A DNA stretch of 64,000 nt. Source: Octopus vulgaris (lineage: Eukaryota). This document shows positions 3,647 through 10,936 of the stretch, piece after piece. Position numbers and translations under genes: made by a program. The stretch lies in assembly GCA_951406725.2 (NCBI GenBank), contig OX597822.1:496001-560000 (forward strand). The letters are read 5' to 3'. Positions within the stretch are counted from its first letter, which is position 1, and every line of letters begins with the position of its first letter. The notes under the pieces are model-generated. The model had not been told where the DNA came from and did not search any database. It saw only the letters and a list, made by a program, of their open reading frames with translations.

Positions 3647-3830
3647 GGTTCCCGTGGTCTTTTCTGTAGGCTTTTCTTCCCACGGATGAACCCAATCTTG
3701 TTTTATCAATGTTTTTATCATTGTTTCTGTGATACACGATTTCTTTTCTTTTTTTTTCCTCCTCTCGATCCCTTTTGATCGCAATCTTACATTTATTTTT
3801 TTTTCCACCCTCGAAAAGAAAAGCTCTACA
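3647..3830 (+). ncRNA. Predicted 3' UTR pseudoknot/triple-helix RNA element (copy A)
   Basis: Stem CCGTGG/CCACGG (3652-57/3680-85). Loop TCTTTTC-TGTAGGCTTTTCTT. Distal AAGAAAAGC-T-CTACA (3816-30) is complementary to the 3' part of the loop. Confidence 0.6.
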
Positions 3831-3881
3831 TTTGTATTTGTCCCCTCTGTATTCAGCCCTGTGTGGCTAATAAAAGAAAGT

Positions 3882-4007
3882 TATCAATCTATCTACCTAC
3901 CTACCTACCTACCTACCTACCTACCTACCTACCTACCTACCTACCTATCTATCTATCTATCTATCTATCTATCTATCTATCTATCTATCTATCTATCTAT
4001 CTATCTA
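3882..4007. repeat. (TACC)n/(TATC)n microsatellite between Tx1 copies A and B
   Basis: Direct reading. Confidence 0.97.
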
Positions 4008-5001
4008 GCATTCTATAGGGGATTAGTGGAGGGGAGGTACGACGACGAGCTCGGGGCGAACCTGGACGTCGACGAGGAGTACCTGACCCGCCTGTTCGGG
4101 ACGACTTTCGGGCCAGGGCCCATGGACAACTTCCAGAGATCCCTGGCCTGGCAGTGCTACCGAGAAGCGCCACCCGTTCGGGATAAGCTCTACAGACACG
4201 GCTCGAGAAACACGGGGCCGACCTGCCCGAGATGCAGTGTCCAACAATTTCCGACCTGTGGGCTTATGTCGAACAACTGCTGTCACGTGTGGGACGAGTC
4301 GGTTTATCAGCTGAGTCTATCGTCAATATTGTCACGCCTCCTTCCTTCAAACGGGAAGGAAGAGCTATTTTCATCATCGTTGTGGCTATGGCGAAAGAAT
4401 GTATCTGGTGGACGCGTCTGAAAGGATTGGAGACAAACACTTTCCTCTCTGGTCAATCTCTCATCAGCTTCTTCAAGTACCACTTGAAAAGGAAAGTGAG
4501 AGTAGAGAGGCAAGTTTTGTCTAGCGAATGTTTTAAAAAAAGATGGGTGAATGTAGTAAGGATGGCACGTATGAATGACGAAGCCACCTTGAGCATAATC
4601 CTATGAACCCAGAAATTGAAAACAGAGGGTTACCCACTTGCAAACAAATGTGGTAACATATAACAATATTGACCAAGGTTACCGTGGTCTTTTTCGTAGG
4701 CTTTTCTTCCCACGAATAAACCTTACTTGCTTTCCCCTTTACACCATACATCATAACACTGTGATACACGATCCCTATTGATCGTTTTTTTCTTCCTCTT
4801 CCCCCTTTTTCCCCTTTTTTCTTCTTTTGTTCATTTCTCTTTTCTTTTGTTCCTTTTCCTTTTTTTTCCCTTTTGATCGAAAACCTACGCTACCTTTTTT
4901 TTGTTTCTTTTGTTTTTTGTTTTTTCATCTCCCAAAAGAAAAGCTCTACCTTGTAACTTGTCCCATCTGTGTGCAGCCCTGTGTGGCCAATAAAGAAACT
5001 T
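4008..5001 (+). mobile_element. 5'-truncated Tx1-clade copy B (ORF2 C-terminus + 3' UTR)
   Basis: Starts abruptly at AGCATTCTATAGG (homologous to ~10066). Encodes AFYRGLVEG...TCPRC and ...FFKYHLKRK...LSIIL*. Ends CAGCCCTGTGTGGCCAATAAAGAAACT followed by (TATC)n. Confidence 0.92.
4675..4950 (+). ncRNA. Predicted 3' UTR pseudoknot/triple-helix RNA element (copy B)
   Basis: AAGGTT..CGTGG/CCACG..AACCTT stems. Loop TCTTTTTCGTAGGCTTTTCTT. Distal AAGAAAAGCTCTAC at 4936-4949. Confidence 0.55.
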
Positions 5002-5112
5002 ATCTATCTATCTTATCTATCTATCTATCTATCTATCTATCTATCTATCTATCTATCTATCTATCTATCTATCTATCTATCTATCTATCTATCTATCTAT
5101 CTATCTATCTAT
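5002..5112. repeat. (TATC)n microsatellite between Tx1 copies B and C
   Basis: Direct reading. Confidence 0.97.
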
Positions 5113-7198: not shown

Positions 7199-7255
7199 CC
7201 TCCCCTCTTGCCTCTTGTCTCTTCTAATATAGTGTGTAAAACACAATTTTCGTAA

Positions 7256-10200
7256 ATGTCAAGTATGCTTAAATTAGGTTGTGTGAATGCGCGTGGCTTG
7301 GCGTCGGCTTGGAAGCAAGGTTACCTTCTAAACGACATCAAGTCACTGGACGTGGATATAGTAGCTATCAGTGAAACCAGACTCAGTAAGCCGCGGGCCC
7401 TCGAGTCCATGTTTGGCAATCAATTTGACATTTATTTTTCTCCCTGTCTGCCGAACATGGGTGGTGGAGGTACTGCGGTGCTTTTTCGAAAGAGTCTAAA
7501 GGTAAAAGTAAGAGCAATATTCCTAGACCCGGAGGGTAGGCTGGTTGTCTTGGACGTGGATGGCAGAAATGGGTGTGCATTCCGTCTGATGGCAGTTTAT
7601 GCACCGTCCTTAACGGGTCGGGCGGATTTCTTCAGACGTCTAGAGGTTTTCCTGGGTACGTCTAGACCTTTACTGTTAGTAGGGGATTGGAACGCTACCT
7701 TGGACACGCATCTAGATTATGTGGGAAGGGATAGGAATAGAAGGGGGTGTAAGAGCCTCAAAGACCTGCTCAGACGTTTCCATTTGTCTGACAGGTTCCG
7801 ACTCGACCATCCGAACGTGCCAACGTGGACTTGGACAAACCGCGTCGGATCGTCGAGATCTTATCTAGATAGAATTCTATGCAGGACAGCGGATAGGGAT
7901 AGTGTAGGATGTCCACAATTTAAAATAGTCAGCTACACAGATCACAAATTTGTTACGTGTACGCTCGACTTAGATAAAACACATAGCAGGGTCCCGGTTA
8001 CTGGAAACTGAACACGTCGCTGTTAGCGCGACAGGTTTACAGGAACCGGATTAGCGAGTTAATTAAGAGGGCGCTGACGGGAGCGGTCGTTAACAACCAC
8101 TGGTGGCACGCCCTGAAAATGGCAATAAAATCGGAATCAATTAGGTTTAGCAAGGAATTAGCGATAGAACGAAATAGAGTAGAGGGAGACTTGGTTAAGA
8201 AATTAGAAGAGGCACTTACCACTGGCAGCGCAACCAACGTGCTGGCTGCGAGGATGGCCCTCGACCAACACCTCAACGCCAAGTACGAAGGTTGCGTCGT
8301 CAGAGCTAAAATGCGTGCCTTAAGGAACGAAGGGATTGAAGCTGCGCGAGAGGCCCGGGTAGCGGAGGCGCAGCGTGGCAACAGACCACCATTCGGTCTC
8401 TAATAGATCAACAGGGATGCAGTTTACTCGAACCCGAAAGGATGTGTGAGGCCTTTCAACAGCACTTTGCTCGACTGTTTGGTGCGAGTGGTGGATCGGA
8501 ACGCGGGATGGATTTCAGTGCCTACCTGATCGACCTGCCGCGGCTCTCGGCAAGAGAAGCGGAGTGTTGTGAAAGTCCCATCACAGCCGCTGACGTGTGG
8601 GATGCGATGGCGGGCTGCGCGAGGGATAAGTCGCCTGGATTGGATGGTTTACCCTACGAGCTGTATTGTCGAATGCCAGACTTGTTTGGCGACCTCTTGG
8701 CATCAGTCTACTGCAACTGGCAACAAAACGGGAGAATCCCCGGTTTCGTGAGCCGAGGTGCAGTGACGTTGCTGAAGAAAGACCTCAAACAAGGGGAATT
8801 TTATAGATAATTTCAGGCCCATCACTCTGCTCAACGCAGATTTGAAAATTTTGGCCAAAGTAATAGCCGAGAGGTTGGCGCTTGTCATTGGTAAACTGGT
8901 CGACAGGGCGCAAACATGCGCCGTGCCGGGCAGAACTATACATGACAACCTCCATCTGATGCGCTACATTGTGGACAGGGTAGTTAAGGATCCTGGCATG
9001 GGTGGGGCGCTGATAAATTTGGATCAGTCTAAAGCCTTCGATAGGGTCGACCATCGGTACTTGGCGGCCGTCCTCAGGGCGGCTGCCTTCGGTCCCGTCT
9101 TCCGCGGTTGGATCGCTGCCTTGTATAGCGGCATCCGATCGGTGATTCGGGTGAACGGTCACCTGTCGAAACCGTTTGACATCACGCGTTCGGTCCGTCA
9201 GGGGTGTCCCCTGTCGGCGCTTCTGTATGTATTGACTCTCGAGCCGCTACTGCGGAAGCTGGTGACACTGAGGGGCATCCCACGGGAACTGGGTTGCGGG
9301 ACGAGCGTGTCGGCATATGCGGACGATGTCACCGTCATAGTGTCGAGCGACAAACACATCAAGATGATAGGCGAGACACTAAGAAAATACGAAACGGTGA
9401 CGGGAGCAAAGATTAACCCGGAAAAGTCAGTGGGTTTGCTACTCGGCACCTGGAGAAGCAAGCCCATGCCGTCCGACTGCGGCTCAGTAGTGGGACGCTG
9501 GACGGACGGACCGGTTAAATTGCTCGGGGTCTGGTTCAGTCCGGACCTCCAAATGGATAAGAACTGGGACGAGATCACGAGTAGAGTGGTCGCTCTCAGC
9601 CAAACATGGGCCGAGAGAAAGCTGTCTCTAAAAGGCCGGGCGGAGGTGGCGAACGCGTACATCGCATCCGTCATCGATTACCGCCTGACCGTCGTACCTT
9701 GTCCCGACGCCACCATCACCAAACTGGAACGCATACTCTTCCGCTTTCTGTGGAAGGGTGGCGTTCCGATGGTGAGGAAGTCCATTTGCTGTCAACATCC
9801 GTTGAATGGAGGACTGGGCATGCCGTGGTTGATGATGCGCAGGCATGCGCTGAGACTGCGACATCTCTGGAAATTCATCGACGACGGTGAACAGGTGTGG
9901 GCGCCATTTGTGAGGCGCGACTTCCCGCAGCTCGTCTCACTGACCGAACTGCAAACGTGGATCAAAAAGAGACCGAAACTGGGCGATTGGCACCGAGAGT
10001 GTCGCCAAGCTCTACAGCAGCTCTGCCGACCGGGGTCAAACTTGTGCAACTTACAAACGACTAAAGCGTTCTATAGAGGACTAGTGGAGGGGAGGTCCGA
10101 CGACACACTCGGGGCAAACCTGGGCGTCGACGAGGAATTCCTAACCCGCCTGTTCAGGACGACGTTCGGGCCGGGGCCTATGGATAACTTCCAGAAATCC

Positions 10201-10704
10201 CTGGCTTGGCAGTGCTATCGAGACGCACTACCTGTTCGAGAGAAGAGCTACAGACACGGTTCGAAAACCATCACCGGACCGACCTGCCCGAGATGCGGTC
10301 AGAGCGACGAAACCGTTCTGCACGCACTCGTGCAGTGTCCAGATATTTCAGAGCTGTGGTCCTTCGTCGAACAGCTGTTGTCACGTGTAGGTCAGGCTCG
10401 CTTATCGGCCGAGTCTATCGTGAATATTGTTCCACCACCTTCCTTTAAACGGGAAGGGAAAACGGTTTTCGTTACGCTGATGGCTATGGCGAAAGAATGT
10501 GTGTGGTGGACGCGTTTGAAAGGACTGCAAACAAACACCTTCCTCTCTGGTCAGTCTCTCGTCAACTTTTTCAAGTACCACTTGAAAAGGAGGATGAGAA
10601 TAGAGAGGAAGGCTTTGTCGAACGAATGTTTTAATAAAAAGTGGGTAAAAGTGGCAAAAATGGTCAGTATGAAAGACGACACTATTTTAAGCATAAATCT
10701 GTAA
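7256..10704 (+). pseudogene. Tx1 ORF2 (APE endonuclease, RT, C-terminal CCHC zinc finger), three frameshifts
   Basis: GCVNARGL, GDWN, TDH; KAFDRVDH, RQGCPLS, YADD; CPRCGQSDETVLHALVQC. Single-base indels versus copy A near 7986, 8386 and 8790. Segment 8842-10704 is uninterrupted. Confidence 0.93.
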
Positions 10705-10763
10705 CCAAAAGAGACAACGAGAAGTAAGGCGACTTACTCATGTGTTCTTTTTCGAATTGTCTG

Positions 10764-10936
10764 AGGTGACCTTGGTCTTTTTTGTAGGTTTTTCTTTCCA
10801 AGGCTACACCTAAACTGTGAACCTTATATATATATTGCTTTTTTATACACCACACAACCCACAGATCCCTATTGATCAAACGTTTTTTTTTTTTTTTTGC
10901 CCCACCCATCCCACCTCGAAAAGAAAAAATTCTACA
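10764..10936 (+). ncRNA. Predicted 3' UTR pseudoknot/triple-helix RNA element (copy C)
   Basis: AGGTG..CCTTGG/CCAAGG..CACCT stems. Loop TCTTTTTTGTAGGTTTTTCTTT. Distal AAAGAAAAA..CTACA at 10920-10936. Confidence 0.6.

Follow-up and report, generated by a model that had tools for sequence, protein, structure and literature searches.

The copies of a long interspersed nuclear element (LINE) that fill positions 1–10992 of a 64,000-nt stretch of Octopus vulgaris DNA (assembly GCA_951406725.2, contig OX597822.1, positions 496,001 to 560,000; hereafter the window) carry in their 3′ untranslated region (UTR) an RNA structure which is real and under selection. A hairpin loop pairs over more than 100 nt with a downstream A-rich tract, and we are confident that the resulting pseudoknot is present; in the families associated with (TATC)n repeats it is quite probably braced by a short triple helix. 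We suggest, giving the idea about an even chance, that this triplex-braced pseudoknot with its conserved long-range helix represents the front half of a pseudoknot–hinge–stem module which the protein of the second open reading frame (ORF2) would bind to start reverse transcription. In the three copies of the window (A, B and C), the hairpin (P1) and the strands of the long-range helix (S2) are arranged as follows:

3647..3692, plus strand: P1 hairpin of copy A (outer and inner stem, 22-nt loop), with two-sided changes
3647..3651/3688..3692 and 3652..3657/3680..3685, plus strand: outer stem and inner stem (CCGTGG/CCACGG) of copy A
3658..3664, plus strand: predicted third strand of copy A, TCTTTTC, mirror of the paired strand
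3665..3678, plus strand: loop strand of S2 in copy A, duplex −17.2 kcal/mol
3816..3830, plus strand: A-rich tract of copy A, the 3′ strand of S2
4675..4724, plus strand: P1 hairpin of copy B (predicted third strand 4688..4694, loop strand 4695..4708)
4936..4949, plus strand: A-rich tract of copy B
10764..10811, plus strand: P1 hairpin of copy C (predicted third strand 10776..10782, loop strand 10783..10796)
10921..10936, plus strand: A-rich tract of copy C

A first-pass annotation had read these stems, loops and tracts from the three copies, and all of them are found at its positions. The 3′ part of the loop does pair with the tract, at a spacing of 137, 227 and 124 nt and with duplex energies of −17.2, −15.9 and −11.8 kcal/mol in A, B and C, respectively. 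S2 comprises up to 14 pairs with one bulged U, and since the tract pairs with a hairpin loop, the topology is that of an H-type pseudoknot, which starts about 60–70 nt past the ORF2 stop and finishes about 40 nt ahead of AATAAA. The tract of copy C has one extra A and a G.U pair replacing G-C, and the terminal pair of the long helix is mismatched in copy B. The differences to which the annotation had pointed (the compensatory inner-stem change from G-C to U-A, the outer-stem change from U-A to G-C, and the change of all three strands at the seventh base triple of copy C) represent family-level states, not private mutations. Its description of the UTRs as otherwise poorly alignable did not hold, because a small hairpin, a TTGTA..GTCC block, a terminal hairpin and AATAAA are conserved as well.

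Covariation of the pseudoknot is supported beyond what three copies could show, by 15 families, by swaps of loops and tracts, and by two-sided changes. Copies were drawn from the genome (2.8 Gb, 227 contigs) by the 3′ end, by ORF2 codons or protein (blind to the UTR), and by the P1 arms; 188 of 196 copies formed 15 families of 4–37 members, with 7 copies from families of fewer than three members and one duplicate excluded. Seven families belong to (TATC)n repeats (A, B, B2, B2x, Bx, C1, and C2), and eight have (ATT)n-type repeats after them (D1–D4, G, H, F, and I). The TATC group is a single branch on the tree of ORF2 ends (100/98), the deeper forks of which are open.

When the whole downstream sequence is searched for the best partner of the loop, the homologous tract comes out first in the majority sequences of 13 of the 15 families; it lies 37–92 nt ahead of AATAAA across the families and 37–45 nt in the TATC ones. 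The S2 duplex is better than 500 dinucleotide shuffles of the downstream UTR in eight families, namely the seven TATC ones (p from 0.002 to 0.038) and H. When loops are offered the tracts of other families, TATC loops reach a mean of −14.9 on the tracts of their own group versus −4.1 and −3.4 on those of the other groups (for H this swap test picked a wrong tract, and the correct value is that of the shuffle test). Two-sided changes, read between groups by hand from the majority sequences, include the replacement of GCTTTT/AAAAGC (A, B) by GGTTTT/AAAACC (D, G), that is of C-G by G-C beside the U-A run; the replacement of A-U by G-C three pairs further (GTAG/CTAC to GTGG/CCAC) in H, F and I; and a transition from C-G to U-A via the U.G state found in older C copies. 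The U-A run itself is 4–5 pairs long in the TATC, D and G families, two in H and F, and one in I.

Pair counts are limited to 12 aligned TATC-group copies, as MAFFT lost the register of the tract across groups. In these copies, 94.0% of the cells are paired versus 89.6% in shuffles (reached in 0 of 500) and 38–55% in slid pairings, and their covariation score exceeds all 500 shuffles, which, though, can be beaten by relatedness alone. Read on the sense RNA, each of the one-sided S2 changes that were counted leaves a G.U pair, and this speaks for the transcript rather than for the antisense strand. In A/B-type families, inner-stem variants reading CCATGG mostly lack a compensating change, in line with CpG decay after insertion. 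The loop and tract strands stay fixed, and the linker between them, the third loop of 92–267 nt, is unalignable. A rough net gain of S2 after the cost of the loop and of local competitors ranges from −0.8 to −7.8 kcal/mol; it is smallest in C1 (−0.8) and B (−2.8 kcal/mol), where a triplex brace would therefore matter. The covariation comes from one genome, since no relatives with DNA context were found in metagenome contigs, prokaryote genomes or viral contigs.

The symmetry of the loop suggests such a brace. Its 5′ seven bases repeat the paired pyrimidine strand in mirror order, and the predicted triples of A, B2 and Bx are, in order, U.A-U, C.G-C, four U.A-U and C.G-C; in D and G, UUUU stands opposite AAAA. 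Triple 7 is U.G-C in B, U.G-U in two older C copies and U.A-U in the young C copies. The mismatch noted in copy B at this triple is present, as U.G-C; it is the consensus state of subfamily B and is not specific to the copy. The change in the paired strand sits at the mirror position, which fits a triplex and not a simple duplication, and U-G-C and U-G-U rank among the most stable non-canonical triples (PMC7583470; this and the other papers cited here are used from the accessible parts of their texts). Seven triples would leave 6–7 pairs crossed by 0–1 nt. In pseudoknots, a crossing of the deep groove can hardly be shorter than this, and the last triple, the same one that varies between families, may fray in such a geometry. 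The proposed triple helix thus stands on its mirror strands and on the family-level states of triple 7, with the reservation that a single triple covaries and that F and I lack it. It is likely to occur in the TATC families together with several ATT-targeting ones. Because F and I have no U-run, we regard the pseudoknot as the constant part and the triplex as an addition. H-DNA was ruled out by inference, as the mirror repeat is just 7 bp long and the one-sided changes favour the sense RNA.

The rest of the 3′ UTR is no less regular. A conserved hinge (TTGTA..GTCC) separates the tract from the terminal hairpin, which has a loop of the CUGUGU/CUUGU type and stands ahead of AATAAA in 15 of 15 families. 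The small hairpin with the CCUAUU/CCUUUU-type loop has a stem that differs among the TATC, D, G, H and I families. In the window, these elements occupy the following positions:

3604..3621, plus strand: predicted hairpin directly after the ORF2 stop of copy A, position kept, sequence varying by family
3767..3780, plus strand: small hairpin of copy A, CCUUUU loop, other stem pairs in families D, G, H and I
3832..3881, plus strand: hinge (TTGTA..GTCC) of copy A, terminal hairpin 3855..3868, AATAAA 3869..3874 and element end, partly common to the tails of short interspersed nuclear elements (SINEs)
4951..5000, plus strand: hinge of copy B, terminal hairpin 4976..4987, AATAAA 4989..4994
10864..10877, plus strand: small hairpin of copy C, CCUAUU loop
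10937..10992, plus strand: hinge of copy C, terminal hairpin 10966..10981, AATAAA 10983..10988

Further single-copy families (L145, L158, L260, L121, and L259) have other 3′ UTRs, one of them preceding CAC repeats; in L260, the U-run of a hairpin loop is accompanied by a matching tract downstream.

The predicted order of pseudoknot, hinge and terminal stem at the RNA 3′ end is the order of the 3′ module in A-clade R2 elements, in which compensatory mutants rescue insertion (PMC12180492); in R2Tg, the protein binds a pseudoknot of the 3′ UTR that contains three base triples (PMC12222951). Both the octopus LINE and R2 are animal elements without long terminal repeats (non-LTR), and in both a pseudoknot containing base triples (predicted ones in the octopus RNA) leads through a short single-stranded hinge into a terminal stem, with an A-rich stretch ahead of the primer-pairing tail. 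The likeness is one of structural order, the two RNAs being set side by side by description only. The annotation knew of no such triplex in an animal Tx1 LINE, and for L1/Tx1 elements our literature search found no pseudoknot or triplex in the 3′ UTR (subscription papers and Repbase lay mostly outside this search and could describe relatives); among animal non-LTR elements, the 3′ UTR pseudoknot of R2Tg with its base triples is already known (PMC12222951).

Two other systems invite comparison. Telomerase RNA has an H-type pseudoknot with the U-rich loop 1 lying along the U-A-rich stem 2, the yeast RNA also contains C.G-C and U.G-C triples, and this RNA, too, is the partner of a reverse transcriptase (PMC7583470, PMC13541005). 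The octopus RNA, as predicted from pairing and covariation, has the same H-type topology, its U-rich loop 1 running alongside the purines of stem 2 in parallel orientation; unlike telomerase RNA, its fold resides in the 3′ UTR of a LINE mRNA which is itself copied, has a long third loop, and has no Rfam match (a scan of positions 3500–11100 gave three chance-level hits, none at gathering score). A tRNA-like element was not found either, as ARAGORN reported 0 genes in the window. The elements for nuclear expression (ENEs), after which the annotation named the structure ENE/MALAT1-like, are U-rich internal loops, and H-type and I-type triplex pseudoknots are distinguished in a review (PMC7583470); ENEs are described from plant, fungal, slime-mould and stickleback retroviral elements (PMC7583470 among the sources). 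The label does not fit the octopus RNA, in which a U-rich internal loop with an upper stem is absent, both U-tracts belong to one 22-nt hairpin loop, and the 3′ terminus is not formed by the A-rich tract. In ENEs from transposons of plants and fungi, such as Evade, a U-rich third strand likewise lies near the 3′ end of the transposon RNA (PMC12501189). These ENEs are internal loops clamping the poly(A) tail, while the octopus hairpin loop is matched to an internal tract, and the C's in both U-tracts match G's of the encoded tract, which argues against engagement of a poly(A) tail. MALAT1 and MEN-beta are similar to the octopus LINE in that C-interrupted U-tracts match a genome-encoded, G-interrupted A-rich tract (PMC7583470), and dissimilar in that the octopus RNA has no upper stem, its tract is not the 3′ end (judged from inserted copies), and AATAAA follows.

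The inserted copies show which RNA was copied. Among 90 copies chosen by the 3′-end pattern (in genome order, 90 of the 100 listed), the tract is present in 88 and the 5′ arm of P1 in 62; none of the 90 has a poly(A) tail in the flank shown, most finishing in a few TATC-like bases. A set of 90 copies with loop and tract was taken without selection by the 3′ end; the sequence runs past the terminal hairpin and AATAAA in 86 of them, and the other four do not stop at the tract either. The copied RNA therefore runs well past the predicted triplex, unlike MALAT1. A template ending bluntly at the tract was rejected (0 of 90 copies end there), and a block of reverse transcription at the tract was not seen (88 of 90 copies reach through). 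The 5′ junctions are spread with no peak at the 5′ edge of P1, and a nuclease-resistant 3′ fragment was discarded as well for want of such a peak. The junction rate in P1 is about half that just upstream (36 hits in 25 positions versus 89 in 31), counted on the minus strand because plus-strand counts were inflated by overlapping matches. Among the sequencing runs listed, none of RNA contained the stretch; it was present as contigs in 20 rows from 6 studies under 3 organism labels. In the four sets compared, the motif varied by T>C at 10930, by A>G at 10801 and by one-base indels in its T and A runs, and none of the 24 loose ends shown, out of 31, had poly(A).

SINEs from the same genome help to separate the parts of the module. 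They combine one central box with three alternative tails, T1, T2 and T3 (n = 106), and in the window they occur at about 34650–34900 (plus strand), 33770 (minus) and 56100 (minus), as at many other loci (e.g., L212, L225, and L232); some T1 copies have target duplications of 15–18 bp. The T1 tail, found in 47 of the 106, is similar to the final 50 nt of family A, with a score of 55 versus 39 for the best of 200 shuffles, and the T3 tail (7 copies) matches family F (41 versus 32 shuffled) and is followed by ATT repeats in six of seven cases. The T2 tail (36 copies) did not exceed shuffles against the LINE ends and is not used as evidence. AATAAA occurs in 17 of 47 T1, 0 of 36 T2 and 0 of 7 T3 copies, versus 15 of 15 LINE families. 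SINE tails are taken as the part recognised by the partner reverse transcriptase (PMC3747384, PMC4824008, PMC4176376), and since the octopus tails carry only the terminal part, the hinge and the terminal hairpin are likely to be the minimal recognition signal. A similar arrangement is given for ZfL2, a stringent LINE with a terminal stem-loop (covarying stem, conserved loop) common to SINE tails (PMC4176376); it belongs to the L2 clade, and the accessible text describes the stem-loop alone. Each octopus SINE has its own hairpin directly ahead of the LINE-like tail, which, as a speculation, might stand in for S2.

Several results weigh against a triplex-braced pseudoknot with a role in priming. 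The S2 duplex is not above shuffles in 7 of the 15 families (D1–D4, G, F, and I; p from 0.24 to 0.60), whose G/U-rich loops pair easily; in D1 and D4 a different site outscores the tract, and D and G loops have no preference for their own tracts in the swap test. The TATC group has only four pairs in which both partners change, a number that 175 of 500 shuffles reach, and nested folding puts the tract onto nearby poly(U) in copies A and C. The single covarying triple lies at the edge of U and A runs prone to slippage, H has UUUU with just two A's to bind, and F and I have no U-rich third strand. Loop and tract are found in 0 of 47 T1 and 0 of 7 T3 SINEs, so that the pseudoknot is probably not required for mobilisation in trans. 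Finally, R2 is of another clade, with a compact module of 65–67 nt, three triples and an R2 protein; the octopus helix, which spans 124–227 nt, is predicted to have as many as seven triples of the pyrimidine motif, and the element has an L1-type protein with an endonuclease of the apurinic/apyrimidinic (APE) type.

In the mechanism we suggest, the 3′ UTR would fold into the H-type pseudoknot braced by U.A-U and C.G-C triples, with the third strand in the major groove and stacked on P1. The triplex would help the U-A-rich helix to outcompete local poly(U) runs, and looping out of the U-rich linker of 120–270 nt would place S2 beside the hinge and the terminal stem-loop, where the ORF2 protein would bind the fold and a UAUC read-through tail, not poly(A), would be used for priming. 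The terminal stem-loop is likely to suffice as a minimal signal, and the pseudoknot would act as an enhancer on the RNA of the LINE itself. A protein-binding scaffold is favoured because the order of the module resembles that bound by the A-clade R2 protein. Of the two roles offered by the annotation, recognition by the ORF2 protein is plausible in this form, despite the LINE-tailed SINEs without a pseudoknot; blunt protection of the 3′ end is disfavoured, because RNA trimmed to the triplex would lose the terminal hairpin, and no such copy was found.

A stabilising role in a looser sense, in which the triplex slows the 3′-to-5′ decay of the intronless LINE transcript and resembles an ENE in effect while being built otherwise, seems to us somewhat unlikely. 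ENEs do stabilise plant and fungal transposon RNAs, and that of Evade raises mobility (PMC12501189); the encoded A tract with G interruptions and matching C's is MALAT1-like, and the fold occurs in the LINEs, which have AATAAA in all families, and is absent from the SINEs, which have mostly lost it. However, a nuclease would have to digest the terminal hairpin before it halted at the internal tract, none of 90 copies ends there, an upper stem or internal loop is absent, and the relatives F and I persist without a third strand. We consider it rather unlikely that the structure is a telomerase-type pseudoknot triplex formed over more than 100 nt, an RNA cofactor that would activate or position the LINE's own reverse transcriptase and that would have passed from about one to seven triples as the families changed target. 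Another step in the life of the RNA, such as 3′-end processing at AAUAAA, export, or translation termination through a shorter effective distance from stop to tail, is improbable: the fold does reach from shortly past the ORF2 stop (~60–70 nt) to shortly before AATAAA (~40 nt), is found in LINEs only and loops out a linker of variable length, yet there is no direct sign of such a step and no 5′-junction peak at the P1 edge. Most improbable is that the hairpins alone are selected, the long-range match and mirror U-tracts being by-products of a U- and A-rich ancestral sequence. The non-significant shuffle tests in seven families, the few independent changes and the unresolved deep tree would agree with this, but not the two-sided S2 changes between groups, the kept spacing to the hinge, the loss of pairing by TATC loops in cross-group swaps, and the fixed strands flanking an unalignable linker.

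The element that carries the pseudoknot is of the L1/Tx1 type: ORF1 has a CCHC knuckle, and ORF2 combines an APE-type endonuclease, a reverse transcriptase and a C-terminal zinc knuckle (zf-RVT). Compared with solved structures, the reverse transcriptase is nearer to the L1 ORF2 protein (E = 4.5e-32) than to R2 (E = 1e-14). The three copies of the window are arranged head-to-tail with (TATC)n between them:

1..3881, plus strand: LINE copy A, 5′ part beyond the window edge, ORF2 broken by a stop, frameshifts and a deletion (Exo_endo_phos domain 220..1743, ORF2 stop TAG 3581..3583)
3882..4007, no strand: (TATC)n target microsatellite between copies A and B
4008..5000, plus strand: LINE copy B, 5′-truncated
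5001..5113, no strand: (TATC)n target microsatellite between copies B and C
5114..10992, plus strand: LINE copy C, apparently full length, ORF1 and ORF2 each frameshifted
10993..11125, no strand: (TATC)n 3′ of copy C

Insertion into simple repeats, as in Kibi, Koshi and the crocodilian Tx1 (PMC4494074), is evident from the (TATC)n that borders A, B, C and most of the copies sampled and from the (ATT)n after families D–I. These two target repeats distinguish the octopus LINE, and for the named families a 3′ UTR structure is not given (PMC4494074). The Tx1 label fits this structure and targeting; the search for named relatives of ORF2 returned no protein match named Tx1, and the closest named proteins come from an argonaut and an octopus. 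The genome contains 10,462 occurrences of the 3′-end pattern and none of its reversed control, the 40 sequences most similar to the end of copy C, itself included, are 97–100% identical, and the best genomic matches of copy C are 97–99% identical. A paper on an octopus genome lists 13 recently active L1-Tx1 families (PMC13282606), and the (ATT)n-targeting D family looks young.

Related elements are arrayed with a period of about 5.87 kb at G000:C4:93804813-93834472 and G000:C1:202330376-202348361, several with an open frame of 1145 aa. At L050, L008 and L030, copies are nested in or adjoin other copies, and at L050 one of them stops within the ORF2 of another after just a few TATC bases, as though a short pairing had served for priming. 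One protein with 60% identity to ORF2 (P0006) lies on a 1.8-kb contig that bears the name of a bacterial genus and is probably host DNA in a metagenome bin. Elsewhere, the window holds a degenerate Helitron at 14373–17842 (Helitron_like_N and PIF1 domains, terminal hairpin and CTAG), a second Helitron 3′-end fragment near 18830–18895, and a tandem repeat at 46906–47467 (24-bp unit, 23.6 copies, 95% match).

Mammalian L1 relaxed to poly(A) recognition, and how the reverse transcriptases of its clade selected their RNA before that can be asked with the octopus LINEs. These offer a natural series, as the 3′ architecture is the same in at least 15 families, which differ in their stems, in the number of predicted triples (zero to seven) and in the microsatellite target (one of two). 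Together with the SINEs that carry only the terminal part, this series makes the roles of the terminal hairpin, the pseudoknot and the third strand separately testable, and it points to a Tx1-like partner for the abundant octopus SINEs. The triplex would put an animal LINE on the short list of natural pyrimidine-motif triple helices and, if the RNA acts as a cofactor of the enzyme, a pseudoknot triplex beside a reverse transcriptase would be a principle common to telomerase, R2 and the L1-type enzymes.

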